Source: an uncultured Gammaproteobacteria bacterium
Lineage (GTDB): Bacteria > Patescibacteriota > Patescibacteriia > Magasanikbacterales > GWA2-37-8
DNA length: 64,000 nt
Reading direction: 5' to 3'
Assembly: GCA_964355175.1 (NCBI GenBank)
Contig: CAYHBZ010000002.1
Coordinates: forward strand, 396,537 to 460,536
Numbering within the stretch: the first letter of the stretch is position 1; each line of letters begins with the position of its first letter. Made by a program: the position numbers and the translations under genes. This document shows positions 2,839-58,763 of this stretch, piece after piece. Below the pieces are notes generated by a model. The model saw nothing but the letters and a program-made list of their open reading frames with translations, did no database searches and was not told the origin of the DNA.

Positions 2839-5800
2839 ATGGCTAGAAGTAATGCGGCCAAAAACCCCGCGCTCGAAACAGCAACGCCACCAGTGGTGCT
2901 GGTGGAAGACCTAAAAGAAAAGGAAATAAAACAAAAAAAAGAAATGAAGTTGGAAAAGATTGAGAGTGTCTTTGACGCGGCGAAGGAAAGGGTGAAAGGA
3001 AAAGAAGACCACCTGGCGGCGATGCACGCGGAATTGGTAGGTTTGCTTAATCAGATCCCGGATAAGGAAAATGGGGATTTTACGGTGCGATTACATAGAT
3101 TCGCGGATAGATTTGGAACTATTAAAAACCATTTAGATAATATGGTAGCCGAAAGCCAATTGCCGGAATTGGAATCGGGTGCTTTTGCGCCAGTGGATGC
3201 GACGGAGTCGTCGCCGGTGTCAAAGAGCAATAGTCATATTTCGGAATTAAAAAATTTCAAAGATACTAGTGGTGCTATTTTAAATGGGGCTGTAAATGAA
3301 AAAATAAAAGATAAACCGATTTTTCGCGGCAGCATGGTGTTTAAAAATGGTGACCATTATGTTGGTTTCTCTATTCTCTCAGCTGACGGATCTTATAAAT
3401 TTCACGGTGAAGGTTCTCTAGAAAAGGATGGGGGTAAGATGGCGCTTGAAGGTTTTTTTCAAAATGGCAAATTAAAAAATGGCCATCTGATTGAAAAATT
3501 AGCAGATGGTAGAACAAGAGTGGTATTTGCTGAAAATGAAAAAGCTGCGCGAGTTGAAACTGGATATTTTAATAGCAACAATCAGTTGGAAGGAGTGGGA
3601 GAAATTATTGATCAAAAACACGGTGTTAAAGAGCGTGGAGATTTTGTGAACGGCGAGCTTCGTGATGGTTATGTGGTAGATCTGATAAGCGGTAAACCGT
3701 TGGAAAAATGGGAAAATGGCAAACAAGTCGAAGCGGGAGAAAATTTACCAGCCGAAATCACTAATTCGGAAAAAAGTTTTGACAGAAGACTGGCTGCCAG
3801 AGAAAAAGAAAGAGAAATCAAAGTCGAAGAAGTTTTTGAAGCAGTCTCCGGTCTAGATGGTTTGGTAAACTTTGAGGATGTTTCCAATCAGGTTTTAAAT
3901 GGGAAAATCACTCACACGCCTAAAAGCGAACATATTTTTGACGGAGAAATAAAATCCGACAGTAGAGGCTATAAATACCAAGGCCAGGCTATTTTGGAAA
4001 GTGACGGTGTTTTCAGATTCCACGGCCAAGGAAAGCGTACCGCTGAGATGGCTTATGCAGGAAAGGTAGAACAGGAAGGTGAATTTTCCTATGGAACTTT
4101 TTTGAACGGTGTAGGAATATATACTGGCCAAGATATGGGCTACGGTGCAGATAAAGTTACAGAAAAAATGGAAAATGGCAAGACTGTAGAAAGAGTATTT
4201 TATCTTGAAAAATACAAAGATAAAAAGGATGTATTATTTGCCGGTCAGATGTTTGAAAAAGAATTTTCCAAAGACAATCTATATGTCGGTGAATTCACTA
4301 TGCCTAATGGCTCCGTATATAAAGGAGAGGCCTTTAAAAATAAAAAAGGTCAATTTGAATTGGTGAGCGGAAAGTCAGAGAGAATAAAATCCGCTACAGT
4401 GATAGATAAGTTTAAAGATTTATTTAGATTTGGTAGAAATAAAAAAGAAGAATCAAAATTAGCTACAGCCGAAGTTCAATCGGAAGTTGAGGCAGAAGCA
4501 GAACAGGCTCCGGAAGTTGTGGGCGAACAAGCGTTTCTTCTCGTCACTCCTGGAGGAGAAAATTACGCACTTAAAGGTATCGCCACTGATCAATCCGACG
4601 GCAGTAGGAAATTTAATGGAGAAATAAAAAATATTGATAACGGTGGTGAAGAGACTGGCTTCCAATATTCTGGTGAAGCAATTCTTTCTAGTAACAATGA
4701 AATAACTTTTCATGGCAAAGGAAAAAAGAGTGGCGCCTTTTTTGATGAAACCGGTGAATGGAATATGGGTGAGTTGGAAAATGGTGAAATCCATTCTAAA
4801 GATGGAGAACTTTTGAAAAAATATGTAAATGGACAAGAGGTGGCCGTGACCAAACCAGCTGAGAAGTCCAAAGAAAAAAGTTGGATCGGTAAAAAGTTGG
4901 AATCAGCCAAAGAGTCTGTAGCTTCCGCGTACAATTTTGTCACTACCAAAGAAGGAGCAAGGTTATCCAACCAAGCGGCCTATAAAATTGCCACTGGTTT
5001 TGTTGGTATTAAAATTGGAACGGATATAGCTTTGGCGGCCTATGCTGGCGCTTTGAATAAAGTTGGTGAAAAGGATTGGTTTTCGGAAGCTTTTAAAAAA
5101 CGATTGAAAGAGGAAGCGGCTGTAGCCGGAGAGTATAGTGATGTCTATAAACATCTGGGTGGTAGGGAGCAGATAGCTGCTATCAAAGCTGGATTTGCCG
5201 AATTTATGTCGGCCGTAAATCCAGAAGAAAATGAGAATGTGGAATTGAATCTGGTAGACGAGAAATATTCCGCTCTCAAAGCAAAAATCGAATCCTCCAA
5301 TAGAATCAACCAAGAAGCCAAAGGAAAATTTTTGGCTAAATTGGAAGAGATAAACCAAAAATTTGATCACAGAAATGAAAAGTTGGATGAACAGGAAGTG
5401 GCGGAAGCTAGCGCTTATATGAAAGCCTATATCGTAAATGATACGGCTGCTATGCAGATTGCCAGAGATAGTATCAGTGGCGTGGCCAAAGCGGTGATGG
5501 TTGGTGCCAGTGGCGGTAGCAGTCTTCTTTTGGCAGGAGCTATCGGCAGGGTGATGGGTATGGCCACTACCAAAGTAGTGGAGCGTGCGCAAAAAAGCCG
5601 CAGATTCAATGAACAAGCGGCATTGGAAAACAAAAAGACATTTAACGCCGCCGAGGATATCAAAGCCGCTTTGCTTGAGACAATGCACGGTTTGACTTTT
5701 AGTAAATTTAACGCGGGTAAAGATGTAAAGACCGGCAAAGATCTGGACAAGAAAGCTCTCTTTGCCAATTTTGCTAAATCGTTTGGTAATGTATTGATAA

Positions 5801-7815
5801 GCGCCGGTGTGGTGCTTGGTTTGGAAGGCAAGACTATCGGCAGTGCAATAAATGAGCTTGTCCATAAAATTTCCGGAGATGGATCAAATGCGGAATTTGG
5901 TCGTCAGATGGCGCAAAATGTTTCAGCCAAGGTTGCGGAAGCTAAAGGTGTAAATCTGGGTAAAATACCAGATAATGCTCCGGTCGCTGCCGCAATTGCC
6001 GCCGCCGAAGCCAAAGCAGCTGCTGTGGCAGCGGGCACAGCTTCAGATCATGTAGCGTCCAATGGTTTGGAAAACTCCGCCGATACCGGCGCTGGTGAAA
6101 ATTCAGCTTTGGAGACTTTCTACCAAGAGCATCCAAAATTATCGAGTGATGCCAAAGCTTTTTTTGATGATCTTGTAAAACAACATACTAAATTAAACAA
6201 TCCTGATTTTCTCAAAAAACTTTGGGAAGTTTCTGGTAATTCTAAATCTTCGCTTGATATCACCGGTGCCAAAGTACAGACCGCTATTTTCACCGAGATT
6301 ATTCACAGTGAGGGCAAGGAAGCGGCCGTAGCTTATTTGAAAGATGAAACTCATTTGCACGGTTTGGCTTTGCAAAAATTAGGAAAAGATGGCGTTGAAG
6401 CTTTTGTGGAAAGATATCTCAAAGGTGATGCTGGTGTGCAAGCCAAGTTGGAAAATAAATTATATGGGGCCATGAAAGCTGATATTGATACCGATCTTAC
6501 AAACAAAGGTTTTATCCAGAGACACGGTGATGGATCGGTTCGGGATGTCGGTGCGGCTAAAGGCCGACATTTCTTTGGGGTTGGTAAAGACGGCAAGCCT
6601 GTATTAGACGATGGTAAGGTTTCTAGGTTTACCCATCACAGCCCTGAACATTCGGTGGCCGGAAGTGGTAAAACAGCTTTGGACAAAATAGTATCCGGTG
6701 AAAAGTTACCTAAAGTTGGTTTACATGAACAAAAAATTGGCATTGGTCCAAATATTCAAAAAGGAATTCCAACTGGTTGGGCCGCCGCTAGTGAAGCAGG
6801 TCCAAAAGGGCAGGCTATGGTAAATGGTTTTATGGATGAACAGGGCCATGGAAGATTTTTAATTCATTCTACTGATCCTGGATCAGAATTTGATGTGGAT
6901 AGAGACATGCGCATGGTGGATTCTAATAGCGGCAAAATTTTTGATCTCGATGGAAATCATGTCGGTTATCTAAATGCTCCGATGGCAGAGAATACTCCAA
7001 CACCAGTGTCCGCAACTCCAGGCAGAGCTAGTTGGTCTAGTGGTGGAAATGGTTCTGAAAAAGGTAACGCCACCCAAAATGTAGTCAGAGCAGAAAGATC
7101 TGTTGATCACGGCGGCGGCGGTGCTCCGAAAGAACAAGCGGTAGTAGCTCCTGCAGAACAAGAACCTGCTCCAGAAGAGAAGAAGCCAGTTCGAGAAACA
7201 AGAGCACAAGTAAAAGCTCCCGGTATTGAAGACATGCTAAAAGCCGAACAAACTCTACAAGAAGATATGAAAGTTGGTAAATCCGTGGAGGCTGAACCTG
7301 TTCCGGTGGTAAAAGAAATTACTTCATTGGAGGATGGGCGTGAGGCGATTGCGGCTTTAGAATATTTGGACGGCGAAGAAAAAACTCGTTTGAGTAATTT
7401 TAGTTACTTACTCCAATGGCAACATGATCTCTATGGTCAAAACGGTTCAACTTTGCGCAACATGCTGGAAGGACAGGATGCGTTTGGTACTCTTGGTAAA
7501 GATCAGATCAATAGTATGATGGCCGAGTTGGCTCATAATAATGAACTGGCCAGTCGAGAGTTTATGAGAGCAGTATCAGATCATCAGCCGTATGATAAAA
7601 TTATAGAAAAATTGAATGATAAGATGCCTGGTTACGCGATGTTCCATGATGAGGATAATGCCGGCTTTGTCGATAAGATTATAAAAACGGATCTTTCGCA
7701 AAATGCAGGCGAAAATAAGGCCGCTTTTAGAGATTTGGAACTGGCAAGAGTGAAAGAAATGGTGGATCAGGCCGAGGTAAACAAGCTAATGCAGGCTCGA
7801 CAGGCAAAAAGATAA
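2839..7815 (+). CDS. giant 1658-aa protein: MORN-like repeat modules, central hydrophobic/Ala-rich region, Pro/Glu-rich spacer, C-terminal helical domain
   Basis: Single uninterrupted ORF; three ~60-aa modules (F.GEIK..G..Y.G.AIL.SDG...FHG.GK) at about aa 165-215, 360-420 and 585-645. Confidence 0.8.
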   Translation: MARSNAAKNPALETATPPVVLVEDLKEKEIKQKKEMKLEKIESVFDAAKERVKGKEDHLAAMHAELVGLLNQIPDKENGDFTVRLHRFADRFGTIKNHLDNMVAESQLPELESGAFAPVDATESSPVSKSNSHISELKNFKDTSGAILNGAVNEKIKDKPIFRGSMVFKNGDHYVGFSILSADGSYKFHGEGSLEKDGGKMALEGFFQNGKLKNGHLIEKLADGRTRVVFAENEKAARVETGYFNSNNQLEGVGEIIDQKHGVKERGDFVNGELRDGYVVDLISGKPLEKWENGKQVEAGENLPAEITNSEKSFDRRLAAREKEREIKVEEVFEAVSGLDGLVNFEDVSNQVLNGKITHTPKSEHIFDGEIKSDSRGYKYQGQAILESDGVFRFHGQGKRTAEMAYAGKVEQEGEFSYGTFLNGVGIYTGQDMGYGADKVTEKMENGKTVERVFYLEKYKDKKDVLFAGQMFEKEFSKDNLYVGEFTMPNGSVYKGEAFKNKKGQFELVSGKSERIKSATVIDKFKDLFRFGRNKKEESKLATAEVQSEVEAEAEQAPEVVGEQAFLLVTPGGENYALKGIATDQSDGSRKFNGEIKNIDNGGEETGFQYSGEAILSSNNEITFHGKGKKSGAFFDETGEWNMGELENGEIHSKDGELLKKYVNGQEVAVTKPAEKSKEKSWIGKKLESAKESVASAYNFVTTKEGARLSNQAAYKIATGFVGIKIGTDIALAAYAGALNKVGEKDWFSEAFKKRLKEEAAVAGEYSDVYKHLGGREQIAAIKAGFAEFMSAVNPEENENVELNLVDEKYSALKAKIESSNRINQEAKGKFLAKLEEINQKFDHRNEKLDEQEVAEASAYMKAYIVNDTAAMQIARDSISGVAKAVMVGASGGSSLLLAGAIGRVMGMATTKVVERAQKSRRFNEQAALENKKTFNAAEDIKAALLETMHGLTFSKFNAGKDVKTGKDLDKKALFANFAKSFGNVLISAGVVLGLEGKTIGSAINELVHKISGDGSNAEFGRQMAQNVSAKVAEAKGVNLGKIPDNAPVAAAIAAAEAKAAAVAAGTASDHVASNGLENSADTGAGENSALETFYQEHPKLSSDAKAFFDDLVKQHTKLNNPDFLKKLWEVSGNSKSSLDITGAKVQTAIFTEIIHSEGKEAAVAYLKDETHLHGLALQKLGKDGVEAFVERYLKGDAGVQAKLENKLYGAMKADIDTDLTNKGFIQRHGDGSVRDVGAAKGRHFFGVGKDGKPVLDDGKVSRFTHHSPEHSVAGSGKTALDKIVSGEKLPKVGLHEQKIGIGPNIQKGIPTGWAAASEAGPKGQAMVNGFMDEQGHGRFLIHSTDPGSEFDVDRDMRMVDSNSGKIFDLDGNHVGYLNAPMAENTPTPVSATPGRASWSSGGNGSEKGNATQNVVRAERSVDHGGGGAPKEQAVVAPAEQEPAPEEKKPVRETRAQVKAPGIEDMLKAEQTLQEDMKVGKSVEAEPVPVVKEITSLEDGREAIAALEYLDGEEKTRLSNFSYLLQWQHDLYGQNGSTLRNMLEGQDAFGTLGKDQINSMMAELAHNNELASREFMRAVSDHQPYDKIIEKLNDKMPGYAMFHDEDNAGFVDKIIKTDLSQNAGENKAAFRDLELARVKEMVDQAEVNKLMQARQAKR

Positions 7816-7925: not shown

Positions 7926-7954
7926 TTGACAAAATTCGTAGATGGTGCTATACT
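7926..7954 (+). promoter_or_regulatory. sigma70-like promoter upstream of cassette A
   Basis: TTGACA (7926-7931), 17-nt spacer, TATACT (7949-7954). Confidence 0.5.
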
Positions 7955-8072
7955 AATCAGTTAAAATCAAATTTAACACCACGAATTATTGCGCCAGGTT
8001 TTGAGAGAGGCCCTAGCAATACATATAGACAGCTAGGTTAATTCTCTCTCAAAGGAGAATTTTTTACTTGTC

Positions 8073-8084
8073 GTTCTTTACAAT
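8073..8084 (+). promoter_or_regulatory. GTTCTTTACAAT box, copy 1 (followed by long leader hairpin, about 8093-8140)
   Basis: Exact 12-mer shared with 8941-8952 and 10397-10408. Confidence 0.5.
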
Positions 8085-8245
8085 AAATAGTGCTGAGCCC
8101 ACATGAGATCAAGAATTTCTTGATTTGATGCGGGTTCAGTGCACACAGCATTGACGTCCTCCGCGATTTTGCGGATTCGTTCAGTGCTGCGTACTGCAGC
8201 CAGGTCACGCGCCCACCTCAGTGGCGTTTCGTTCAGGAGTTTCCG

Positions 8246-8779
8246 ATGACCACCGCAAAGCACCCCGATCCGAACCATCCGGACCCCGGCACCACCGAAG
8301 AGCCCGTCGTCGACAAGGCGAAGGGCGACACGGTGGTGACCACGACGACCACCACGAGCGTTTCGTCGGCCGAGCCCATCAAGGCAAAGCCGGTGGCGAC
8401 CACCGACACCACGGCTGGCAAGACGGCGACCCAAGAGCCCAAGAAGGGTGGCTGGCCGCTCGGGACCATCGCCGGAGCTGTCGTGCTCGGTCTTCTGCTC
8501 CTCGGCGGCGTCTACTGGTTCGGCAGCCACAACAGCAGCACGCCGGTCGTCCCGCCCATCGCGGTCGCCGGTTGCTGTCTTCCCCAGGCCACCGTCGCGA
8601 GCCCCTGCTGCCCGCAACCGCCGGCTCCGCCCCCGCCGCCCGCCCCCGTCGTCAAGAAGAAGACGGTCGGCGAGTGCGTCGCCCAAGCCGTCGCCGGCAT
8701 GGAGGTCGCCCATGAGGACGACCGCCTCGCCGCGATGGACGGCGCCCGCGAAGAATGCGAGGAAGAATACGGCAAGTAG
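8246..8779 (+). CDS. GC-rich cassette A: bitopic membrane protein (Thr/Pro-rich N-terminal region, one TM, Cys/Pro-rich C-terminal region), no recognised family
   Basis: AGGAG 6 nt before ATG; strong G/C at codon position 3 in this frame only; TM WPLGTIAGAVVLGLLLLGGVYWF preceded by KKGG. Confidence 0.65.
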   Translation: MTTAKHPDPNHPDPGTTEEPVVDKAKGDTVVTTTTTTSVSSAEPIKAKPVATTDTTAGKTATQEPKKGGWPLGTIAGAVVLGLLLLGGVYWFGSHNSSTPVVPPIAVAGCCLPQATVASPCCPQPPAPPPPPAPVVKKKTVGECVAQAVAGMEVAHEDDRLAAMDGAREECEEEYGK

Positions 8780-8940
8780 CCGTTCCTGTCTCGCGTCGCT
8801 ATGTCGGTTCGGCGGGCCCTCAGCAATGAGGGTCCGCCGGCCGACTGGCTCGAATAGGACCTTTGTAGATTCCACTAGGGAAACTCCAAAGGTCCCCTAG
8901 ATTACATTCTTTTGGAAACAAGAGGATGTTGATAGGAAAA

Positions 8941-8952
8941 GTTCTTTACAAT
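8941..8952 (+). promoter_or_regulatory. GTTCTTTACAAT box, copy 2 (TTGATA 12 nt upstream)
   Basis: Exact 12-mer; about 35 nt upstream also similar to the copy 3 region. Confidence 0.5.
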
Positions 8953-9196
8953 TAAAACCAACAAAATTTTTTCCCACCTAAAAAGAATTATTATTTATAG
9001 TAATTCACTCTCGGTGGGAAAAAGTGTGGCGGAAATTCCGTTGCATAGCCTCCGACAGAGTCCCAATTGGGGCAAGTGCCCCGCGTGCGGGCTACTCTGT
9101 TACAGCGACCATTTCTGGGAAGCTGACCGAACGGCCCGCACGGCCGGTGTTCCAGTGTCTTGGTTTCGTGGGGTGAAAGTCCCCTGGAGTACAGCG

Positions 9197-10192
9197 ATGA
9201 ACAAGAATTCGAAGTTCCACAACCTCAGCATCTTGCTGACCCTGGCCATGGGGATCATGGTCGCTTCCAATTCCTACGCCGACGTGGCCACGGCTCGCGC
9301 TCGTGCCGAAGCCGCTCGTAGCCAGGCCAATCGGGCTGAGGTGAAAGCGGTCGACGCACAGACTGCGGCCAACGCGGCCAAGACCGGCGCCACCAACGCC
9401 CAGACCGCGGCCGATCAGGCCAAGGTCGAAGCGACCGCGGTGGGCACCAAGGCGGCCACTGACCTCGCTACGGCGATCCGCGCCCTCAACGGTGCGGTCG
9501 GCGGTGCGCGTGCGGCAGCGGTCAACGGTGATCGTCAGCTCGAGCGCAAGTTCAAGGCGGAGGCCGAGCGCCTTCAGACCGAGATCGAAGCGCTCAAGAA
9601 GCGGGCGCAGCACGAGTGTGCGGCGTTCGATGACAAGGGCAGCCAGGCGGCCTGTCTGACCATGCTCGAGAAGATCAACGCCAAGAACGGCGAAGTCACC
9701 ATGCACGGGCAAGACAAGGACACGGAGGTCCAGATCGCCAAGGTGGGACAGCAGTCCAAGGTGGTCCAGGAGATCTTCGACAACGCAAACCAAAACATGG
9801 ACGCCATCAAGGCGATCCAAATGGGTTGCGTCAACCAGGCCTTCGTCGACAAGGACGGCGTCAGCAAGAGCAAGTGGGAATGCCCCAAGGACATGAAGCG
9901 CGGCCCGCAGTTGCGCTACGAGCTCACGAACGTCTCGAAGTACGGCGACCACAGCGTCGTCATCGAGCCGGCCGAGAGCGGTGGCAATTCCAAGTGGGGC
10001 AAAGTGCTCGGCTTCGGCGCCATCGGTGGTGCTGCTGGCGGTGCTCTTGGCTGGGCCTTCTTCCCGAACCATGAAACCATGGAAGATGGCAGCGTCATGC
10101 ACCGGAATTACACCGGTCTCGTCGCTGGCACGGCCATCGGTTTCGTGGTCACGGCGGTGGCCACCCTGGTCATCGAAGAACTGACCGAATAG
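9197..10192 (+). CDS. GC-rich cassette B: secreted Ala-rich coiled-coil protein with C-terminal Gly-rich hydrophobic anchors, no recognised family
   Basis: GGAG 7 nt before ATG 9197; signal-peptide-like MNKNSKFHNLSILLTLAMGIMVASNSYA; GC3-biased frame; 9014-9196 treated as 5' leader. Confidence 0.65.
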   Translation: MNKNSKFHNLSILLTLAMGIMVASNSYADVATARARAEAARSQANRAEVKAVDAQTAANAAKTGATNAQTAADQAKVEATAVGTKAATDLATAIRALNGAVGGARAAAVNGDRQLERKFKAEAERLQTEIEALKKRAQHECAAFDDKGSQAACLTMLEKINAKNGEVTMHGQDKDTEVQIAKVGQQSKVVQEIFDNANQNMDAIKAIQMGCVNQAFVDKDGVSKSKWECPKDMKRGPQLRYELTNVSKYGDHSVVIEPAESGGNSKWGKVLGFGAIGGAAGGALGWAFFPNHETMEDGSVMHRNYTGLVAGTAIGFVVTAVATLVIEELTE

Positions 10193-10396
10193 GTCAACGG
10201 GTGAGGAGATCACCCCAAAGGATTGCAAGTGTGTTGGTTCACTTGCGCCAAATCTCGGTGTAGCTTATCTTGTCCCGCATTCGCGGTACGAGAGAAAGTT
10301 CACTAAACCGGTGGCGTGAACGATGGCTCAAATAGAGCTGTCGGTCACGCCCCAACAACTATCTTCTGTTTTTCAAACAGGGGATTGAGTTGGTAA

Positions 10397-10408
10397 GTTC
10401 TTTACAAT
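10397..10408 (+). promoter_or_regulatory. GTTCTTTACAAT box, copy 3 (TTGAGT 12 nt upstream; followed by hairpin, about 10426-10476)
   Basis: Exact 12-mer. Confidence 0.5.
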
Positions 10409-10641
10409 TTATTTCGTTAGATTTTCTCATACAGGACATAGGATATTTTTTGTATCTTGTGTCCTGTGTGAGAAGCCCCCAGTGGGGGTTGCCTGGGTGA
10501 AAACCCGACTAGGTCGGGGCGTTCGCTCCGGCAATTCCTCACTAGGGTGGTAAAAACGCCATCCGGACGGGTCAACTTCGACCTTTTCGGTAAAGTAGCA
10601 GTGTCTTTCTTTGTCCGCCCTTTAGTGGGCCGGAGGTTCTG

Positions 10642-12063
10642 ATGCGTAACCGGTTTCAATTGGTCGCGACTCTCGCGATGGCGGCTGCAGCCTGTGCAGC
10701 GTGTGGTGTCATCGAACATCCGGCCGATGCGGTCGTGATCGTGGTCGAAAAAGACGCCAGCAGCCAGGATGTCCAGCAGGACAACGGTCCGGCGCAGCAG
10801 CCCGAGATCGCGCAGACGGCCGACATCGCGCAGGACAACGGTCCGGCGACGAAGCCTGAGTGCGCGGTCGACAGCGACTGCGACGACAAGAACCCCTGCA
10901 CGACGGACGTCTGCGGCAGCAACGCCTGCGTCCACGTGGCCAACTCGGTCTCGTGCGACGACGGCAACGCCTGCACCAGCAACGACAAGTGCGGCTCCGA
11001 GAAGTGCTCGGGTGACCAGAAGGTCTGCGACGACAACAACCCCTGCACCGACGACGGCTGCGTCAGCGACGGCACCTGCCTGCACGGCGTCAACATCGTC
11101 AACTGCGACGACAGCGACGCCTGCACGGAAAAGGACCAGTGCGCCAACGGTAAGTGCGTCGGCCAGGTGAAGTCGTGCGACGACAAGGACAACTGCACGA
11201 CGGAATCGTGTGACAAGCTCAACGGGTGCTCGTCCACTCCGGTCGTCTGCCAGGACGCCGGGGATCCGTGCACGACGGAATCGTGCGACAAGGCAACGGG
11301 CAAGTGCTCGTCCACCACCGACTGCGACGACAAGGACGTCACCACGTTGGATGCCTGTGAACCGCTGCTCGAGACCGTGGGAATGGAGAAATGCCTCCAC
11401 ATCAAGATGCAGACCAAGTGCACCAAGAATGCGGATTGCGACGAGGACGGCGATCCGTGTTCGTTCGAGTTCTGTTCCCAGATCGGCTACTGCGCCAGCA
11501 AGTGGAAGTTGTGCGATGACGGAGACTACTGCACCCAGGACGAATGCGTCCCTCAGGCCGACTACGCCTGGTGCAAGAGCACTCAATACTCATGCGACGA
11601 CTACAACGCCTGCACGCTGGACTCCTGCACCAACGGCTACTGCCAACACAAGGGCAACGCCGCCATGTGCGACGACAAGGACTCCACCACCGCCGACTCG
11701 TGCAACCCTTCCCAGGGCTGCGTCAACACGCCGATTCCTCAACCCGGCGTGCCGAGCTCGACTCCTCCCTCGAATCCCTCGACCTGTGCGGCCTGGGGAG
11801 CGTGGATTTACTTGCCCACGGGCAACTGGCGCGGCGGCTATGACCTGACCGGTTCGTCTTCGCAAGAAACGGACCTGACAATCAGCGTCGACCAGTGGTA
11901 CGGCTTCAGCAACGCTCATTCTGTGTGGGCGTGGCTCAAGCCGTGGGGCAGTGCGGTACCGGCAAGCGTCAAGTGCACTGATCGGTGTGGTGTGGTCTTC
12001 CCCGCGAAGATCAGTGCCATGGCGGGTGGCTTCATCGCCATCTGCAGCACCGACCAGAAGTAG
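10642..12063 (+). CDS. GC-rich cassette C: Cys-rich repeat lipoprotein/secreted protein (tandem C-D-D-x-N-x-C-T-x-D-x-C units, Dicty_CTDC-like)
   Basis: GGAGG 5 nt before ATG; N-terminus MRNRFQLVATLAMAAAACAAC (signal/lipobox-like); 12 or more repeats of ~24 aa with spaced Cys; unrelated ~120-aa Trp-rich C-terminal domain. Confidence 0.75.
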   Translation: MRNRFQLVATLAMAAAACAACGVIEHPADAVVIVVEKDASSQDVQQDNGPAQQPEIAQTADIAQDNGPATKPECAVDSDCDDKNPCTTDVCGSNACVHVANSVSCDDGNACTSNDKCGSEKCSGDQKVCDDNNPCTDDGCVSDGTCLHGVNIVNCDDSDACTEKDQCANGKCVGQVKSCDDKDNCTTESCDKLNGCSSTPVVCQDAGDPCTTESCDKATGKCSSTTDCDDKDVTTLDACEPLLETVGMEKCLHIKMQTKCTKNADCDEDGDPCSFEFCSQIGYCASKWKLCDDGDYCTQDECVPQADYAWCKSTQYSCDDYNACTLDSCTNGYCQHKGNAAMCDDKDSTTADSCNPSQGCVNTPIPQPGVPSSTPPSNPSTCAAWGAWIYLPTGNWRGGYDLTGSSSQETDLTISVDQWYGFSNAHSVWAWLKPWGSAVPASVKCTDRCGVVFPAKISAMAGGFIAICSTDQK

Positions 12064-12330
12064 GCGGGGCTCAGGGGGTCTAACGGAAAAAGTTTTTGCT
12101 CTTTGGTAAAAGCAAACGGAAGGAGGTGTTCCTTTCGATAGGCCATTTCGGCCACCCATGCCAGAGGCGAGCGATCGCTAAAGGCTGGTCAACTAGGGGT
12201 GGTGTTGCTTCACCGCACACCACCCCGACCATCTCTAGCTCACAATATCTGTTGTGATCTGAAGATGGAAATAGCAATATGTCCATGACAAAAATACCAC
12301 CCTTCTCTCGGGCGGTTTTTTGTTTTTTAA

Positions 12331-18154: not shown

Positions 18155-18306
18155 AATAAGTCGTTTGTTCTTTATTTGGCAGGATAATTTTGGATTAAAA
18201 TTTTTAATTCAGAGTTATCGTGCCAACTTTCTCAATGCGTGTCGGCGAAATGCGTCGATATGTAAAGAGAGGTGCGAGAGCCTACATGGTAGGCAGGAGA
18301 GCAGGA

Positions 18307-19122
18307 ATGGCAGACAGCAGCCACAACGTTACTCAGGTCGGCATCACCGTCGGGCCGCCCAACGCCGATCTCGGCAGTGTGGTGGTTCGTCAGGAGGCGG
18401 CCAGGGCGGATCTCAATGAGCGGCGTACGCATCTCAGCTTGGTTGTCAAGCCCTCGGTCGATGATCTGGTCGCGCGGCTGAATGTCGAGCGGCAGGAAGT
18501 CGACCGCATCGGCGCGCTGGTCGATGCGGTAGAGCGCGAACAGGCGAAGAGCGTCAAGCACTTCGAATCGACGCTCGGCGGGCAGGCGCGGCTCTGGAAG
18601 AAGGGTTTCGACGCCCATGAGCGCTCGATCTTCTGGGTCAAGCTCCTCGGCGTCGTCGGCCTGGTCCTGGTCGGTATCGTCCTGGTCCTGAACCTGTCGT
18701 CCTCCTCGGACATCTCCACGGCCAAGTCGGAAGCCATCTCGGCCAAGACCACCGTGGCGGAGTTCAAGAAGGCCACCCAAGGCGAGGTCGTCAAGATCAA
18801 GAAGAGGCTCGATGCCAACAAGCTCGACATGGATCAGCTCAAGGATCAGATCAAGGTCGTCGGGCTCAAGGCTGACAAGAGCGTCGTCACTCGCATGGGC
18901 GAAGAGCTCAAAGAAGCCAACATCGAGCAGGACGGTCGGATCCAGGACATCGCCACCGCGATCATGGGCAAGGCCGACATAGCCGATCTCAAGAGCGTGA
19001 GGAGCGCAGTCGCGCAGGTTCGCCGGGCCAACGGCAAGGTGAACACGAAGATGACCAGGCTCGAAGCTCAGGTCCTGGAGCTCAAGGCCCAACTCCAGGC
19101 CCAACAGCCCAAGACCATGTAG
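18307..19122 (+). CDS. GC-rich cassette D: bitopic membrane protein with extracytoplasmic coiled coil, no recognised family
   Basis: AGGAGA 6 nt before ATG 18307; TM WVKLLGVVGLVLVGIVLVLNL; heptad-like K/D/L-rich C-terminal half; GC3-biased frame. Confidence 0.65.
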   Translation: MADSSHNVTQVGITVGPPNADLGSVVVRQEAARADLNERRTHLSLVVKPSVDDLVARLNVERQEVDRIGALVDAVEREQAKSVKHFESTLGGQARLWKKGFDAHERSIFWVKLLGVVGLVLVGIVLVLNLSSSSDISTAKSEAISAKTTVAEFKKATQGEVVKIKKRLDANKLDMDQLKDQIKVVGLKADKSVVTRMGEELKEANIEQDGRIQDIATAIMGKADIADLKSVRSAVAQVRRANGKVNTKMTRLEAQVLELKAQLQAQQPKTM

Positions 19123-19185
19123 TCCGTTCCCGATCTGTTCGGGCACTTGTAGTTTAGCCTTGATTTCTGAAGGCAAAAGCTCGGT

Positions 19186-19300
19186 GAGGACGCAAAATCC
19201 CCCCAAGGGTGTGTCGTTTACTCGACACTACCTGCTTAGTTCGCAAAAAATTGTTTGCTGAGCAGAATAAAAAATCCGCTATTATGGTGGATTTTTTAAT
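19186..19300 (+). repeat. 3' repeat R1, copy 1 (three hairpins, the last a terminator)
   Basis: About 80% identical to 20118-20238; bulged hairpin GGTGTGTCG-TTTACT-CGACACTACC; ends AAAAAATCCGC...GGTGGATTTTTT. Confidence 0.6.
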
Positions 19301-19330
19301 CTAAAATATGCTGTTTTTAGGTCAGTAGTA

Positions 19331-19359
19331 TTGACAAAGTAGGATTTTTATGTTTTAAT
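19331..19359 (+). promoter_or_regulatory. sigma70-like promoter of cassette E
   Basis: TTGACA, 17-nt spacer, TTTAAT. Confidence 0.55.
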
Positions 19360-19504
19360 AGTTCATTAGATTGTTCTTTTTAATCAATTCGCGCGACAAT
19401 TATAAATTAAAATTTTTCAATTTATAATCGTCGTGCGAATTTCAGTTTATCAATGACGGCCAGTCGGAGGTTCCGATTGGTTCAGCTCTTTCTGCGAGGT
19501 GAGC

Positions 19505-20074
19505 ATGGTTGATTTCAATCCCCCGGATCCAGTGGATCCAGAGAAGAAAAAGAAGCCTTCGTCGGCTGTGGAGACAGACCACAATTGGGAAGCCTGGGCC
19601 AACGATAATTCGGTCGATGACGGCAGTCATCCTCTGCCTGGTGAAGCCGAATACGTCGGACGGTCCGACCTTCCCATGACACGGGCACAGAAAGAGCGCA
19701 TCGCCGCGATCGTAGTCGGTACGGCCTTCCTGGTGTTGGTTTTCTTTGTCATCAATTTCGCTATCGGCAACAAGCTCAAGCATTCTGAAGCGGCCTCGTC
19801 CAACGAGGCTGGCAAGCAGAGCGCTCAGGCAAGTGCCGAAGTAGAATTGAAGGCAGAAGAAGCCGCCTCAGAGCAGGATCATACGGTCTCGCTGCCGGAT
19901 CACGCTTCGCAGGAAGATGATCTGGACGATGCTCGCGCGACCATCAAGGTCGTCGGTTTGGAGAAACGGCGCGTTCGAGATCCAGAGATGGAGCGGATCG
20001 CCGCAACCATCAAGATCGTGCCACTGCGTGTCAGTCCTGTCGCGGTACCGCTTCCAGCGGCCGCTACTCAGTAG
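19505..20074 (+). CDS. GC-rich cassette E: bitopic membrane protein with acidic C-terminal region, no recognised family
   Basis: GAGGTG just before ATG 19505; TM IAAIVVGTAFLVLVFFVINFAIG preceded by RAQKER; GC3-biased frame. Confidence 0.6.
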   Translation: MVDFNPPDPVDPEKKKKPSSAVETDHNWEAWANDNSVDDGSHPLPGEAEYVGRSDLPMTRAQKERIAAIVVGTAFLVLVFFVINFAIGNKLKHSEAASSNEAGKQSAQASAEVELKAEEAASEQDHTVSLPDHASQEDDLDDARATIKVVGLEKRRVRDPEMERIAATIKIVPLRVSPVAVPLPAAATQ

Positions 20075-20117
20075 TAGTCAAACATACTTTGAACCTAAAA
20101 GTGTGTGAGACTCCTGA

Positions 20118-20238
20118 ACAGGACAAAAAATCCCCAAAAGGGTGTGCCGACTGAAAAGTCGGCACTACCTGCTTAATCAATAAAACATTGTTTATTGAGC
20201 AGAATAAAAAATTCACTTTGAAAGGTGGATTTTTTAAT
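20118..20238 (+). repeat. 3' repeat R1, copy 2
   Basis: Same three-hairpin layout as 19186-19300; stem 1 differs by paired substitutions (GGTGTGCCGAC / GTCGGCACTACC). Confidence 0.6.
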
Positions 20239-20245
20239 TAGTTTT

Positions 20246-33793: not shown

Positions 33794-34000
33794 ATCGGAT
33801 ATTCTATCAGAAATAAGGGTATTTTACAAGGAATAAAAAATACCCTACCAAAGGTAAAGTATTTTTATAATAATGCCTATTTTACCGAGATCTCCTGTTA
33901 AATTTTTACCAATATATTTGATAAAGATTTAGCATTGGGAGATCTTGGTGGACCGCGACCTCCCAACGCCAGACTTGCGTCGGTCTGTCGGTAGGCGAGT

Positions 34001-34354
34001 CTACCAGGCGCCCATGGGCTGAGACGTAGGCTTGGCGACTTCCAGTTCCTGGGCCGTGGCCAGACGCGCTCCGGCACAGGTGCCCAGCACCCACTGGATC
34101 ACGAGCAGGTCACCGACCTTGGTCTCCTTGGGGACGAACAACGGGAAGCCGCTGCGGTCCTCGTCGGCTCCGCGCTTGTGTTCGTTCTCTGCGAAGTAGC
34201 GATGGCCGCTCTTGTCGCTACGTCCGAGCACGTAGAAGATCGGAGTCTCCGGATGCTGGTCGGCGTTGTTGCTGTCGCGACGGATGAGTTTGCCTTGGGG
34301 TACAAAGATACCGACACCGGTTTCGAGCCGGAAGACACCGTGAAAGATAAGCAT
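34001..34354 (-). CDS. GC-rich cassette F: 117-aa soluble protein, no recognised family
   Basis: AAGGA 6 nt before ATG; GC3-biased frame on minus strand; own promoter and leader hairpin. Confidence 0.6.
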   Translation of the reverse strand: MLIFHGVFRLETGVGIFVPQGKLIRRDSNNADQHPETPIFYVLGRSDKSGHRYFAENEHKRGADEDRSGFPLFVPKETKVGDLLVIQWVLGTCAGARLATAQELEVAKPTSQPMGAW

Positions 34355-34401
34355 TGATTGTCCTTGAGTTGCATCAACCGAAACGCTCGGCTGATATGAT
34401 G

Positions 34402-44682: not shown

Positions 44683-45738
44683 ATGAAAAAAAGTAAAAAA
44701 ACAGCAGTGTTCTTTCTAGTAGCCCTTTCGTTCGCGCTTGGGCTTGTCGGTCCACTGGCCGCATTGGCTGGTCCAACCAAGATTGAACTTTTGTCGGCCG
44801 ATAATTTTGCCATCCTTGCCGGTTCCACCATTACCAACATTGGATCGAGCATCGTTGGCGGAGATCTTGGCTTGAGCCCGGGTACCGCGGTCACCGGGTT
44901 TCCACCGGGAATTGTGAACGGAACCCAGCATGTGGCTAATGCCGTTGCCGCTCAGGCGCAGTTAGATGTCACTACCGCTTATACGACAGCGCTTGGATTT
45001 GCGTCTATTTCCACTATACCAACCGAACTTGGCGGAACGACTAAAACCCCTGGTGTTTATGATTCCGCGGCTGGGACTTTTGGAATCACTGGTACACTAA
45101 CGCTCGACGGTGAGGGTGATGCGAACGCGGTGTTTATTTTTAAAACCGCTACCACTTTTATCATGGCCGCAGGGAGTAAGGTGGTTCTTGTGAACGGCGC
45201 GCAAGCGTGTAACATCGTTTGGCAAGTAGGTAGTTCAGCGACGCTTGGAACAAATTCTACGTTACAAGGCAGTATTCTAGCGTTTACTTCCGCCACGCTT
45301 AATACTGGCGCACATGTCCAAGGGCGAGTATTAGCTCGCAATGGCGCCGTTACTTTAGATTCTAGTACTGTTACCAAAGCTACTTGTGCTGTGCCTGTTG
45401 TGGAACCAATTGTGGTATCAGCGCCTCAGCCCACATCGACTCCTAATTTTTCGACATCCACTCCTACATCCGTGATAATACCATCGTTTTCAACTTCAAC
45501 ATCAATGCCAGCGCCCAGCACAACACCATTGGTATTCTCAGCCACTGTGACAGCTTCGCCTACACTGAATGTTGCTCCGCTTGTGTCTACATTTATTCCT
45601 GATTTTCCCAATACCGGTCTTTCTCCACAAGAGACAAGTATGTGGTGGGGTAGTCGATTGTTTGTCGCTAGCGCGCTTTTGATTTTGACTTTATTGTTGG
45701 TAATCTTAAAAAAACGTTCATCATCTTTGGGTGTTTAA
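44683..45738 (+). CDS. ice-binding-like (DUF3494) surface protein with sortase sorting signal
   Basis: Signal peptide; FAILAGSTITNIGSSIVGGDLGLSPGTAVTGFPPG motif; C-terminal FPNTG plus hydrophobic helix plus KKR. Confidence 0.75.
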   Translation: MKKSKKTAVFFLVALSFALGLVGPLAALAGPTKIELLSADNFAILAGSTITNIGSSIVGGDLGLSPGTAVTGFPPGIVNGTQHVANAVAAQAQLDVTTAYTTALGFASISTIPTELGGTTKTPGVYDSAAGTFGITGTLTLDGEGDANAVFIFKTATTFIMAAGSKVVLVNGAQACNIVWQVGSSATLGTNSTLQGSILAFTSATLNTGAHVQGRVLARNGAVTLDSSTVTKATCAVPVVEPIVVSAPQPTSTPNFSTSTPTSVIIPSFSTSTSMPAPSTTPLVFSATVTASPTLNVAPLVSTFIPDFPNTGLSPQETSMWWGSRLFVASALLILTLLLVILKKRSSSLGV

Positions 45739-56121: not shown

Positions 56122-56206
56122 GGAGAGGTCGCATAGTGGCCGAGTGCGCCGCCTTGGAAAGGCGGTATACCGCAAGGTATCGAGGGTTCAAATCCCTCTC
56201 TCTCCG
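56122..56206 (+). tRNA. tRNA-Ser (anticodon GGA), long variable arm, CCA not encoded
   Basis: Hand-folded: acceptor GGAGAGG/TCTCTCC, anticodon stem CCGCC/GGCGG with loop TTGGAAA, 16-nt variable arm, T-arm GAGGG-TTCAAAT-CCCTC. Confidence 0.85.
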
Positions 56207-56244
56207 CTGGGTCACGCTTATATGAGCAAAGGGTTCATATTCCA

Positions 56245-56276: not shown

Positions 56277-56405
56277 ACCAGATAAAAAAATAATTCTTCA
56301 TAAAAACACACCGTCGGGTGTGTTTTTATATTGACAAAAATGTATTTTTAGTATAGGCTCTAGCCTGATCGTTCTCGCGGATTTCTCGCGCTACAGGAGG
56401 ACATC

Positions 56406-56774
56406 ATGGCAGATTCTCTGCCGTTCCAAGAAGATCTGCGTAAGCCATTCCACATCTCAGTCTGCGACCGGATCGCTCTCTGCCTCACGGCAATGAGCAT
56501 CTCCGGTGGAAGGGAGATCCCGCTCGGCATCCAGGAGGTGACCAGAGACCTGGATCTCTTGGACAAGACCAAGGTCCCGGCCAAGGAACTGCCCAGTGTG
56601 ACAAAGGCCCTCTACGGCCTGCGGGTGATGTACGGCCCTCTCATGCCGACGGTTTCTCAGCGCCTGACCCAATCGATCGACCTCTTGGTCGTGTATCAAG
56701 AGGAGCTGGCCGAGGATGGCAAGCTGGATCGCGACCTCGTGTGGTTGCCGCCTGTCGTCGACCCGGTAGCCTAG
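56406..56774 (+). CDS. GC-rich cassette G: 122-aa soluble protein, no recognised family
   Basis: AGGAGG 5 nt before ATG; GC3-biased frame; TTGACA at 56331. Confidence 0.6.
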   Translation: MADSLPFQEDLRKPFHISVCDRIALCLTAMSISGGREIPLGIQEVTRDLDLLDKTKVPAKELPSVTKALYGLRVMYGPLMPTVSQRLTQSIDLLVVYQEELAEDGKLDRDLVWLPPVVDPVA

Positions 56775-56900
56775 CTGGTCTGTAGATTTTCACCCGGTCT
56801 TCGTCTATGTCCGGGTTGAGAGGTGTTCATACACCACTCCGTCCCGACTTAGTCGAGACGTGAATCACCGCAAGGTAGTGACGAGAACATCAGACATTCA

Positions 56901-56970
56901 GACTGTTCGCGCTCACTTAAGATTATAACTTGATTATAGTTTTAAGTGACGAACAGTCTTTTTGTTTTTT
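56901..56970 (+). terminator. long hairpin terminator of cassette G
   Basis: AGACTGTTCG..TCACTTAA-(AT-rich apex)-TTAAGTGACGAACAGTCT followed by TTTTTGTTTTTT. Confidence 0.6.
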
Positions 56971-57041
56971 CTAAAGGATATTTTATAGATACGGATGGCA
57001 ATACTTTTGGTTTGCATCAGCCGGATGAAAAGGCGGCATAA

Positions 57042-57070
57042 TTGACTTTTTTGAATTTAATCGCTAAAAT
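57042..57070 (+). promoter_or_regulatory. sigma70-like promoter of cassette H
   Basis: TTGACT, 17-nt spacer, TAAAAT. Confidence 0.55.
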
Positions 57071-57105
57071 GGTGTTCAGCCATTTTGGCTTTTTGGAGTT
57101 TCGCC

Positions 57106-57327
57106 ATGAGTGTAAAATATCGTCCGGGAACCGGCAGGGAGCCGCGCATCTTCCATGAGAGTATGGGCTTGCCCAGCCGGACGGTCGTTCAGATCGACTG
57201 GTGGACCTGTCCGAACCTGATCGTGAAGGATGAGCAGTTCGGAAATCGCGAACTCTGTGACTTTCAGAACCCGTCTTGGGAACACAAGTGCCAGGGTTGC
57301 GGTGCCGATCGTCCCGATAAGTCCTAG
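57106..57327 (+). CDS. GC-rich cassette H: 73-aa protein with RanBP2-like zinc-ribbon (WWTC...C-x3-N-x6-C-x2-C-GA-x-RP)
   Basis: TGGAG 7 nt before ATG 57106; GC3-biased frame; C-terminal motif shared with cassette I. Confidence 0.6.
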   Translation: MSVKYRPGTGREPRIFHESMGLPSRTVVQIDWWTCPNLIVKDEQFGNRELCDFQNPSWEHKCQGCGADRPDKS

Positions 57328-57335
57328 GAGGACTC

Positions 57336-57362
57336 ATGCGTATCCGCGCACCCCCGCCTTAA
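57336..57362 (+). CDS. putative arrest-type mini-ORF MRIRAPPP*
   Basis: Stop of cassette H embedded in TAGGAGGA; ATG 3 nt after the SD; 8 codons ending RAPPP-stop; homologous to 58764..58793. Confidence 0.4.
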   Translation: MRIRAPPP

Positions 57363-57387
57363 AAAAGGCACAGGGAAGTAGCGGAAT

Positions 57388-57453
57388 AAAAACCGCCGCC
57401 AACCTGTTTTGTTTCCAAATACAATTGGAGATGGGATAGGCTGGCGGTTTTTT
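57388..57453 (+). terminator. long hairpin terminator of cassette H
   Basis: AAAACCGCCGCCAACCTGTTTTGTTTCCAA...TTGGAGATGGGATAGGCTGGCGGTTTTTT. Confidence 0.6.
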
Positions 57454-57455
57454 GT

Positions 57456-57484
57456 TTGACTTCCAGAGAGGGATTTGATAGTTT
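57456..57484 (+). promoter_or_regulatory. sigma70-like promoter of cassette I
   Basis: TTGACT, 17-nt spacer, TAGTTT; -35 abuts the terminator T-run. Confidence 0.45.
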
Positions 57485-57523
57485 TGATGGGCGCAAATTT
57501 CGCGCCAACCAGTGAGGAACACA

Positions 57524-57925: not shown

Positions 57926-57931
57926 GGAATC

Positions 57932-57958
57932 ATGCACTACTCCACCGGACCGCCTTGA
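57932..57958 (+). CDS. putative arrest-type mini-ORF MHYSTGPP*
   Basis: Stop of cassette I embedded in TGAGGA; ATG 3 nt after; 8 codons ending GPP-stop. Confidence 0.35.
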   Translation: MHYSTGPP

Positions 57959-57988
57959 AATATAGGTGGGCAGGGCGGAGGAAGATTA

Positions 57989-58053: not shown

Positions 58054-58064
58054 ATTTGAAATAC

Positions 58065-58746: not shown

Positions 58747-58763
58747 TCAAAGAGGAGGAGAAC

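Follow-up and report, generated by a model that had tools for sequence, protein, structure and literature searches.

Conserved intercistronic RNAs with boxA-like motifs separate fast-evolving genes for predicted envelope proteins in a probably native GC-rich locus of Candidatus Magasanikbacteria

The subject of this work is Locus 1 (positions 7926-12330, genes on the + strand), a GC-rich locus in a window of 64,000 nt, i.e. the whole stretch of DNA that was analysed, which derives from contig CAYHBZ010000002.1 (assembly GCA_964355175.1, positions 396,537-460,536). We conclude, with a probability of roughly 0.85, that the locus is native to its host and that it pairs conserved spacer RNAs with three hypervariable open reading frames (ORFs), A, B and C. 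According to our best reading of the sequence, Locus 1 would be a lineage-specific operon for three envelope proteins, i.e. a predicted membrane anchor (A), a predicted secreted coiled-coil protein (B) and a predicted Cys-rich lipoprotein (C). The host belongs to Candidatus Magasanikbacteria, a lineage of the candidate phyla radiation (CPR); the close loci found with the neighbouring radical SAM protein all come from metagenome-assembled genomes (MAGs) of Magasanikbacteria/Patescibacteria (identity of 92, 87, 79% and downward), and the window carries ordinary cellular genes (Mur ligases, a penicillin-binding protein, MraY, transketolase, GatA, SufB and Lgt). The related loci and contigs compared with the window are numbered L001-L072.

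Results

GC-rich cassettes at a conserved site

The mean GC content of the window is about 41%, whereas the 500-nt windows between 8001 and 12000 showed values of 0.57-0.63 (0.52 at 10001-10500) and the flanks values of 0.37-0.46. A finer scan resolved three blocks, at 8121-8920 (0.65), 9001-10260 (0.62) and 10441-12260 (0.61), with intervening spacers of 0.27-0.30, and each block harbors a single + strand ORF whose ATG is preceded by a Shine-Dalgarno sequence. A preliminary description of this DNA had announced tandem GC-rich cassettes, and they were indeed found as three units at 8090-12260 with about 61-65% GC in a 41% GC genome. The GC content of third codon positions (GC3) was 0.87 in A, 0.82 in B and 0.84 in C, as against 0.34-0.49 in the neighbouring host genes, and the leaders and trailers of the locus showed a GC content of 0.51-0.60 vs. 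about 0.3 in the spacers. Further ORFs within Locus 1, in antisense or out of frame, are by-products of the high GC content, and the GTG start of B at 9014 was rejected because the conserved leader has a 1-nt indel in L005.

Such a composition might point to recent transfer, and the preliminary description had spoken of foreign surface proteins. On this view, the three genes were recently acquired from a donor of high GC content, such as the host of an episymbiont, and inserted into an island of surface genes. The contrasts in GC content (61-65 vs. 41%) and GC3 (0.82-0.87 vs. about 0.40), a codon usage that resembles that of a high-GC genome, the many relatives of the repeat domain of C in MAGs of Myxococcota/"Deltaproteobacteria", and the existence of further GC-rich loci in the window, one of them adjoining a tRNA-Ser gene, would agree with this proposal. 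However, when the synteny of the locus was surveyed with the neighbouring radical SAM protein as query and one genome per species (48 loci), a GC-rich ORF (GC3 at least 0.22 above the locus median) was present in 28 of the 41 loci scored, down to about 50% identity of the radical SAM protein, and most sampled Magasanikbacteria had GC-rich cassettes at the same site, ahead of wzy and of the radical SAM gene, a distribution that is not patchy. The order giant gene-A-B-C-wzy and the non-coding elements are kept in L054-L056 and L070-L072, and the A-B-C architecture with these elements also in L007, despite the fact that the four-fold synonymous sites of host genes are only 47-59% identical between the window and L070, which is near saturation.

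Homology searches also argued against a donor. For B, 3 relatives were detected in 5.8 billion clusters and 4 in 1.84 billion representative proteins searched exhaustively with HMMER; for A, 4 were detected in the 5.8 billion clusters. All traceable relatives of both proteins reside in this same locus, none of them in a high-GC organism. The repeat region of C had 1012 relatives, those named belonging to Deltaproteobacteria/Myxococcota and to CPR bacteria (Azambacteria, Uhrbacteria, Magasanikbacteria). Locus 1 showed no mobility gene such as an integrase, no tRNA flank and no phage signal; searches of IMG/VR and of JGI metagenome contigs with the B profile yielded no relatives, and the 18-nt matches that a 17-mer of the conserved B-C RNA had in viral contigs were attributable to chance. 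Moreover, the GC3 of the islands was modestly correlated with that of their hosts (r=0.45, p=0.017). A recently transferred island is therefore very improbable, and a prophage moron was rejected for want of a phage signal and a prophage context.

The locus is thus old and resident, and with synonymous sites this close to saturation an imported GC3 of 0.85 would not have persisted under neutrality, which implies that something maintains the GC-richness. We conclude that it is actively maintained and is not the leftover of a recent transfer. Codon or translational selection can hardly be the only cause, since the GC enrichment includes the non-coding leaders and trailers, recombination-driven GC-biased conversion as the sole cause is doubtful because an equally variable giant gene upstream has a GC3 of 0.34, and import is unlikely because there are no donors. 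Selection for heavily structured, long-lived or Rho-resistant RNA and a targeted GC-biased process are the possibilities that we consider.

Conserved RNAs and variable coding sequences

The comparison of Locus 1 with L070-L072 revealed that coding and non-coding parts evolve in opposite ways. While the host proteins were 85-95% identical, A was 50% and B 42-44% identical, and C reached 43% in L070 and L071, with only a partial match in L072 (55% over 24% of C). In contrast, the four non-coding segments of the locus showed 87-94% DNA identity (87-88% in the A-B intergenic region), which is far above the 47-59% of housekeeping synonymous sites. The same trend was observed in L055, whose host genes have 79% DNA identity and whose B-C intergenic region has 88-89%, and in L004 and L005, two short contigs from other samples in which the spacers and leaders are 90-100% identical to those of the window and ORF B is 49% and 42-46% identical, respectively. 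This divergence is mosaic: the 3' part of L005 matches the window, and the middle parts of L004 and L005 match each other but not the window. In an allele of A (P0127), the C-terminal third agrees almost perfectly with the window, and the remainder agrees poorly. Neither the flanks nor the ORFs had further copies in the 64-kb window.

The two intercistronic RNAs, of 417 and 449 nt, are untranslated. The B-C RNA folds into 13 helices in which 15 pairs carry compensatory changes, as compared with 5.6+-1.8 in shuffles (none of 500 reached the observed value) and with 0-4 pairs when the partners were slid; three of these pairs lie in helix 11, the third of the long hairpins described below. At gathering thresholds an Rfam scan reported only two tRNAs in the window, and at E<=1 only a chance mir-187 hairpin between 7850 and 12400. 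The conserved spacer RNAs could be new functional RNAs.

Two contigs from other samples are 100% identical to the window, L001 to 8925-12330 and L003 to 8064-8929. The ends of these Logan contigs coincide exactly with the AT-rich spacers and with the terminator, which suggests that the assembly graph branches there owing to differing neighbours within populations.

boxA-like 12-mers and long hairpins

The 12-mer GTTCTTTACAAT occurs three times in the window, exclusively at 8073, 8941 and 10397, i.e. once before each ORF, whereas about 0.008 exact matches would be expected by chance in 128 kb (both strands). In folds of these regions the 12-mer is unpaired, apart from a weak pairing of its 3' end at the third site, and a long hairpin follows 9-30 nt downstream (Table 1); the stem of the first hairpin is kept in L007 through changed bases. 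The 12-mers, the hairpins and the conserved intercistronic RNAs do not feature in the preliminary description. These features extend to the related loci. At 48 sites, the core of the motif was fully unpaired in 65% of the cases, and the 100 nt from the motif on had a median fold z score of -4.6 vs. -0.2 in GC-matched controls (p=6e-12). Among the 43 instances with up to two mismatches to the 12-mer that are followed by GC-rich DNA, 42 are on the sense strand of the cassette, positions G1-C4, T6-A8 and A10-A11 are nearly invariant, and T12 is the least conserved position, being A in 7 of the 43.

The motif resembles the boxA antitermination element. The gamma-proteobacterial boxA consensus is GYTCTTTAANA (PMC5725501); GTTCTTTACAAT matches it at 10 of 11 positions, bearing in mind that this consensus comes from another phylum than the host, and the orthologous sites in L055, L011 and L012 (GTTCTTTAAAAT) match it at 11 of 11. 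The 8-nt boxA core GTTCTTTA, which is what is recognised in boxA, is contained exactly in the 12-mer, and the first 8 nt of the 12-mer are identical to those of a functional Legionella boxA, GTTCTTTAAAA, which when placed upstream increased the pre-crRNA (precursor of CRISPR RNA) about tenfold (PMC7862264), and of the boxA in the Taylorella rrn spacer, TGTTCTTTAACA (PMC2666751). It has been reported that boxA before arrays of clustered regularly interspaced short palindromic repeats (CRISPR) keeps Rho from terminating the long untranslated RNA (PMC7665894). At Locus 1, the 12-mers lie on the sense strand past the promoter, are single-stranded and stand beside a stem-loop, which is the placement expected of boxA provided that the region is transcribed as predicted. 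At Locus 2, another GC-rich locus of the window, a canonical TTGACA-17-TTTAAT promoter precedes the core GTTCTTTA, which would hence be part of the transcript. The conservation profile, with its weak T12, fits boxA and does not fit a -10 hexamer.

Promoter, leader and terminator

The promoter at 7926-7954 is the only promoter-like site that a scan reported on the + strand of Locus 1. It precedes a leader RNA that did not match any Rfam family and that can form two mutually exclusive pairings, either GAGAGAG (8003-8009) with CUCUCUC (8045-8051) or AUUCUC with GAGAAU followed by U6 (8042-8066), the latter being a weak terminator-like hairpin in which CUCUC pairs with GGAGA before the U-run. This leader may represent a new attenuator, riboswitch or small RNA in Magasanikbacteria. 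The trailer hairpins of Locus 1 all lack a U-tract. On the + strand, the palindromic terminator at the end of the locus shows one A.C mismatch followed by T6GT6.

The terminator is part of a 3' element of about 130 nt (12200-12330) that is found across the class and consists of the hairpin CCAUCU...AAGAUGG, the stretch AAAUAGnAAUAUCUCCAUUACAAAAA and the terminator itself (L008 8415-8552, L009 1540-1672, L011 5344-5482, L012 102-236, L013 6383-6517). The terminator loop, CUUCUCUC, and the invariant GAGAGAG in the leader (8003-8009) are complementary; this could reflect a leader-trailer contact as in rRNA operons, or a separate small RNA.

Table 1. Coordinates of the predicted features of Locus 1
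Feature	Position	Strand	Remarks
Sigma-70-type promoter, TTGACA-17-TATACT, TG before -10	7926..7954	+	Score 11/12; kept in 12 related genomes
Conserved leader RNA, ~105 nt	7961..8066	+	Alignments, fold; kept in at least 12 genomes
boxA-like element 1, GTTCTTTACAAT	8073..8084	+	Unpaired in minimum free energy fold; orthologous site kept in L007, L054-L056, L070, L072
Long hairpin 1, boxB-like or possible RNase III substrate	8090..8142	+	-33.8 kcal/mol, z -7.1
GC-rich 5' leader of A	8143..8245	+	AGGAG Shine-Dalgarno 9 nt from ATG; 8091-8245 = 0.54 GC
ORF A	8246..8779	+	177 amino acids; predicted bitopic membrane protein; GC3 0.87
3' trailer of A	8780..8940	+	Hairpins 8808-8845 and 8857-8895 without U-tracts, then AT-rich spacer
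boxA-like element 2, GTTCTTTACAAT	8941..8952	+	Exact 12-mer; orthologous site in L055 is GTTCTTTAAAAT
Long hairpin 2, UUUUUCCCACC...GGUGGGAAAAA	8968..9023	+	z -5.1; kept in L004, L005, L007, L054-L056
GC-rich structured 5' leader of B, non-coding	9024..9196	+	90-100% identical to L004/L005 up to ~9136
ORF B	9197..10192	+	331 amino acids from ATG; open frame reaches back to GTG 9014
Structured 3' trailer of B	10193..10396	+	Helices 1-8 of B-C intercistronic RNA
boxA-like element 3, GTTCTTTACAAT	10397..10408	+	Exact 12-mer; weak 3'-end pairing in fold
Long hairpin 3, uninterrupted 23-bp stem	10424..10474	+	10397-10480 fold -36.8 kcal/mol, z -8.9
GC-rich structured 5' leader of C	10475..10641	+	GGAGG Shine-Dalgarno; helices 12-13 of B-C RNA
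ORF C	10642..12063	+	473 amino acids; predicted lipoprotein-type Cys-rich protein; Pfam E=5e-25
3' untranslated region of C	12064..12295	+	12200-12295 kept across class: hairpin CCAUCU...AAGAUGG, then AAAUAGCAAUAU
Palindromic terminator shared with convergent wzy	12296..12330	.	Scan lists - strand; loop CUUCUCUC invariant in 8 genomes

Predicted products and neighbourhood of Locus 1

The topologies of A, B and C, which were assigned by hydropathy and inspection only, agree with those of the preliminary description. A has a Thr/Pro-rich N-terminal part and a single predicted transmembrane segment (68-94) with Lys on its N-terminal side, past which comes a CC..CC/poly-Pro tail with 6 Cys. B shows a signal peptide (MNKNSKF...SYA|DVAT), a long helix rich in Ala, a middle part with 4 Cys and a Gly-zipper, and ends in a predicted transmembrane hairpin (segment 306-327); an AlphaFold2 (AF2) model places helices at 30-142 and 266-330, with a confidence score (pLDDT) of 59. 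C contains 50 Cys and about 12 Dicty_CTDC repeats, with a small domain at the C terminus, and it belongs to the Pfam family Dicty_CTDC (PF00526) with 87.3 bits over a cut-off of 27, four stretches being reported; the invariant C/D/T pattern of the repeats is kept across its orthologues, and its AF2 model (pLDDT 58) shows beta-hairpin repeats. The N terminus of C (...LAMAAAACAAC) has an atypical lipobox, whereas orthologues carry the canonical LVVSGC, and a gene for Lgt lies in the window. A and B had no Pfam match, and an NCBIfam scan gave nothing above its cut-offs. Weak PHROGs matches of the Ala-rich coil of B to tail fibres (best E=1e-6) were judged compositional.

All three products thus bear sequence features of extracytoplasmic or membrane-anchored proteins, as had been claimed, and evolve very fast, as expected for exposed proteins. 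A, B and C may have a role in attachment or host interaction.

The surface-gene setting assumed for the locus was borne out by its Pfam-annotated neighbours, a convergent Wzy_C O-antigen-ligase-like gene, the radical SAM gene and a GT4/GT1 glycosyltransferase gene, which place it in a surface region of a CPR genome. The label of a MORN-repeat protein given to the upstream giant product was not confirmed, as no Pfam family was found in it at E<=0.01 and no MORN repeat (PF02493) even at E<=10. This giant protein (2839-7815, 1658 amino acids) is 38-70% identical in relatives whose other proteins are 85-95% identical, and its highly variable gene has nonetheless a GC3 of only 0.34. Farther away, the product of the ORF at 44683-45738, in a slightly GC-elevated stretch, contains an Ice_binding-like domain with strong Pfam support (E=6e-60).

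Other GC-rich loci of the window and of relatives

Seven further GC-rich single-gene units with GC3 of 0.62-0.85 are distributed over Locus 2 (18220-20100), Locus 3 (33921-34360, - strand) and Locus 4 (56361-58840), and none of them reaches a curated Pfam cut-off. Locus 2 encodes two predicted bitopic membrane proteins, and each of the two genes is preceded by a canonical promoter, a boxA-like core (GTTCTTTA at 18167 and GTTCTTTTTAAT at 19373) and a long hairpin. Its 3' flanks (19196-19300 and 20127-20240) are homologous repeats of about 110 nt with the arrangement AAAATCCCC..AAGGGTGTG-hairpin-CACTACCTGCTTA..TGAGCAGAATAAAAAAT-terminator, and its site, between the GHL15 and PALP genes, is GC-rich in several relatives too.

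The proteins encoded by Loci 3 and 4 are small and soluble, and every gene there has a TTGACA-17-TATAAT-type promoter and an AT-rich terminator of its own. Locus 4 begins directly past the tRNA-Ser gene (56122-56207). Three mini-ORFs of Locus 4 (57336-57362, 57932-57958 and 58764-58793) start 6-15 nt past the stop codons of three genes; they are each equipped with a GGAGGA-type Shine-Dalgarno sequence, followed by a hairpin and a terminator of similar sequence, and encode MRIRAPPP*, MHYSTGPP* and MVSIRAPPR*. We take the endings IRAPP and GPP to resemble the ribosome-arrest motifs of SecM/ApdA type (RAGP/RAPP), and the mini-ORFs may act through stalling as a device for 3' regulation or stabilisation. 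Two small GC-rich ORFs (57085-57327 and 57512-57925) end in WWTC...C...N...CxxCGAxRP, which is reminiscent of RanBP2-type zinc fingers; for the first of them the Pfam family Zn_ribbon_RanBP scored E=0.003, below its cut-off.

In some distant relatives the middle cassette of the Locus 1 site (L008 4949-5539, L011 2585-3283, L013 3584-4180) encodes another kind of protein, of about 200 amino acids with a signal peptide and alternating hydrophobic strands, which has no Pfam match and ends in ...GWRF or ...FGFRF, resembling the signature of outer-membrane beta-barrels. Such a signature is unexpected in CPR bacteria, which are generally regarded as lacking an outer membrane.

Discussion

The properties of the 12-mers incline us, by a narrow preference, to regard them as boxA elements acting in Nus-factor antitermination. 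Several observations weigh against this proposal and the operon built on it. The boxA consensus is borrowed from other taxa and may differ from the rRNA boxA of the lineage itself, and position 9 of the motif (C) departs from it; in 13 metagenome contigs of other taxa the sequence GTTCTTTACAA lies 91-151 nt before a 16S gene, the number of such contigs being within reach of chance. Genes for NusB, NusE, NusG and Rho were not found in the 64-kb window, and the intergenic regions are not C-rich/G-poor, unlike classical Rho loading sites. A weak terminator-like site at 10243 on the + strand was the sole terminator-like match of the scan inside the locus. The terminator of the leader lies upstream of the first boxA-like element, so that read-through at that point is not explicable by boxA, and covariation tests of the two alternative leader helices gave no decisive signal. 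As for the products, the functions proposed here are deduced from topology, and both AF2 models are of low confidence. Finally, the motif contains TACAAT, which could serve as a -10 box and would then define three separate transcription units.

This last point leads to the view that the 12-mer is a promoter, with a -10-like TACAAT and an upstream extension recognized by a housekeeping or dedicated sigma factor, that the three units form a regulon, and that the hairpin is a stabilising 5' stem-loop. TACAAT shares 5 of 6 positions with TATAAT, the motif at the first cassette lies in AT-rich DNA directly past a terminator-like hairpin, and the long hairpin would stand at the extreme 5' end of the mRNA, an arrangement known from the stable ompA or S-layer mRNAs; moreover, the GC-rich cassettes of Loci 2-4 each have their own canonical promoter. 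However, there is no conserved -35 box at a workable spacing, TTGA-like hexamers being located 12 nt upstream, and the promoter scan was silent at the 12-mers. The last T of the hexamer is its least conserved position, with TACAAA in 7 of 43 instances including the orthologous sites in L007, L055 and L056, whereas GTTC (positions 1-4) is nearly invariant, and at Locus 2 the core is placed downstream of the TTGACA-17-TTTAAT promoter, i.e. within the transcript. We therefore consider a promoter function unlikely.

Two further views concern the recombination of the locus. That Locus 1 is an expression site for antigenic variation, fed by gene conversion from silent cassettes through its conserved flanks, would account for hypervariable, mosaic ORFs between conserved flanks and for a GC content above the genome level, as in Borrelia vls, where GC is elevated relative to the genome; the Logan contigs that break exactly at the spacers would also be expected if neighbours differ within a population. 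Nevertheless, the 64-kb window contains no silent copies or flank repeats, the three ORFs are mutually unrelated, the variation was observed between genomes and not within one, and the equally hypervariable giant gene, with its GC3 of 0.34, indicates that variability can occur without a rise in GC, all of which makes this view improbable. It is hardly credible that Locus 1 is an array for site-specific recombination, integron-like or other, with GTTCTTTACAAT and the hairpin as the recombination site. Although the units are tandem, contain single genes and are bounded by a GTT-containing motif plus an imperfect palindrome, and although the kind of the middle gene varies by lineage (B-type, or putative beta-barrel-like in L008, L011 and L013), no integrase or recombinase was found among the Pfam-scanned ORFs of the window or the listed genes of L054-L056, L070 and L072; GTTCTTT does not fit the attC core GTTRRRY (RYYYAAC...GTTRRRY), with no inverse core across the hairpin; the stems are perfect and lack the extrahelical bases typical of attC; and conserved, covarying intergenic RNAs of 400 nt are unlike integron junctions. 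The target of a diversity-generating retroelement was also considered and rejected, as there was no reverse transcriptase among the scanned ORFs and no repeat resembling the template and variable repeats (TR/VR), and the divergence spans whole ORFs.

If the 12-mers act as boxA, transcription would start near 7961 and would either pass or stop at the leader hairpin, the 5' leader acting as an attenuator. NusB/NusE would be loaded onto the polymerase at each 12-mer, as in rRNA operons, lambda nut sites and CRISPR arrays, and the loaded polymerase would then cross the 417- and 449-nt structured spacers without Rho-dependent or hairpin-induced termination. The long hairpins of 20-25 bp might be RNase III sites that free stable monocistronic mRNAs, or stabilisers. 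The conserved spacers may double as homology arms for the exchange of alleles of the exposed proteins between strains, on which phage, host or competitors would exert diversifying selection.

The closest parallel of the 12-mers is the boxA/nut antitermination of rRNA operons, lambda nutL/nutR, CRISPR arrays and suhB, with which they share a single-stranded motif of 11-12 nt with 10 of 11 matches to GYTCTTTAANA, a sense-strand position past a promoter, a following hairpin in the manner of boxA-boxB, and a long untranslated structured RNA thereafter. By analogy, they would bind NusB/NusE and affect termination. In contrast to these systems, the motif precedes each of three protein-coding genes of one operon in a CPR bacterium, the hairpins have 20-25 bp instead of the 5 bp of boxB, and no N-like protein is known. 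In the RfaH/ops (lipopolysaccharide, capsule), LoaP and EAR RNA (Bacillus eps) systems, a cis element in the leader keeps RNA polymerase processive, and they are similar to Locus 1 in combining a dedicated leader element with a long envelope-related operon; the element described here is nonetheless boxA-like and neither ops (GGCGGTAGnnTG) nor EAR, and no NusG paralogue was seen in the window.

With hypervariable surface loci (flagellin and O-antigen alleles, Campylobacter fetus sap, Borrelia vls) Locus 1 shares conserved flanks around a divergent mosaic coding part, envelope products, adjoining surface-polysaccharide genes and, as at vls, an atypical composition. It differs in that no silent archive was seen in the 64-kb window, that the flanks are structured RNAs under selection of their own, and that the GC-richness extends to unrelated small cytoplasmic ORFs at other loci. 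Genomic islands and phage morons also have an atypical composition, and Loci 2-4 resemble them in being single genes with their own promoter and terminator, but the synteny observed here is class-level and there are no donors, mobility genes or prophage context. C, with about 12 repeats behind a lipoprotein signal, is comparable to the Dicty_CTDC (PF00526) lipoproteins of Myxococcota and CPR bacteria except for a short C-terminal domain specific to its Magasanikbacteria orthologues; we know of no function for either group.

The constituents of Locus 1, i.e. boxA-type antitermination, hypervariable surface loci and Cys-rich repeat lipoproteins, are of known kinds, and it is their combination that is new. 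This combination comprises boxA-like modules repeated within a protein-coding CPR operon, spacer RNAs more conserved than housekeeping genes, and a compositional anomaly that is lineage-wide and not due to horizontal gene transfer (HGT); our literature searches yielded no description of GC-rich cassettes in Magasanikbacteria. A broader and distinctly tentative proposal, which we hold to be doubtful, is that Magasanikbacteria keep a GC-rich gene compartment (GC3 about 0.8 vs. 0.4) of mostly lineage-restricted orphan genes, many of them for envelope proteins, with a composition actively maintained by an undescribed process and with rRNA-operon-like transcription based on boxA, long processing hairpins and highly conserved, structured spacer RNAs. 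Candidate processes, both possible, are the advantage of structured, Rho-resistant and long-lived mRNAs in ribosome-poor cells, or a GC-biased repair or conversion of these units.

A strong compositional anomaly without horizontal transfer matters for HGT detectors, MAG binning and curation, and islands of this type tend to break assemblies and risk being lost from MAGs. A GC3 of about 0.85 kept over the long term in a genome of about 0.40 poses a testable question on mutation, repair and selection in reduced genomes. As to regulation, boxA antitermination may be used repeatedly within one protein-coding operon of a deep-branching lineage. It is assumed that CPR bacteria live attached to other cells, and their surface proteins and gene regulation are almost unknown; the fast-diversifying, lineage-specific predicted envelope proteins of Locus 1 are good candidates for the interface of these bacteria with their hosts or phages.

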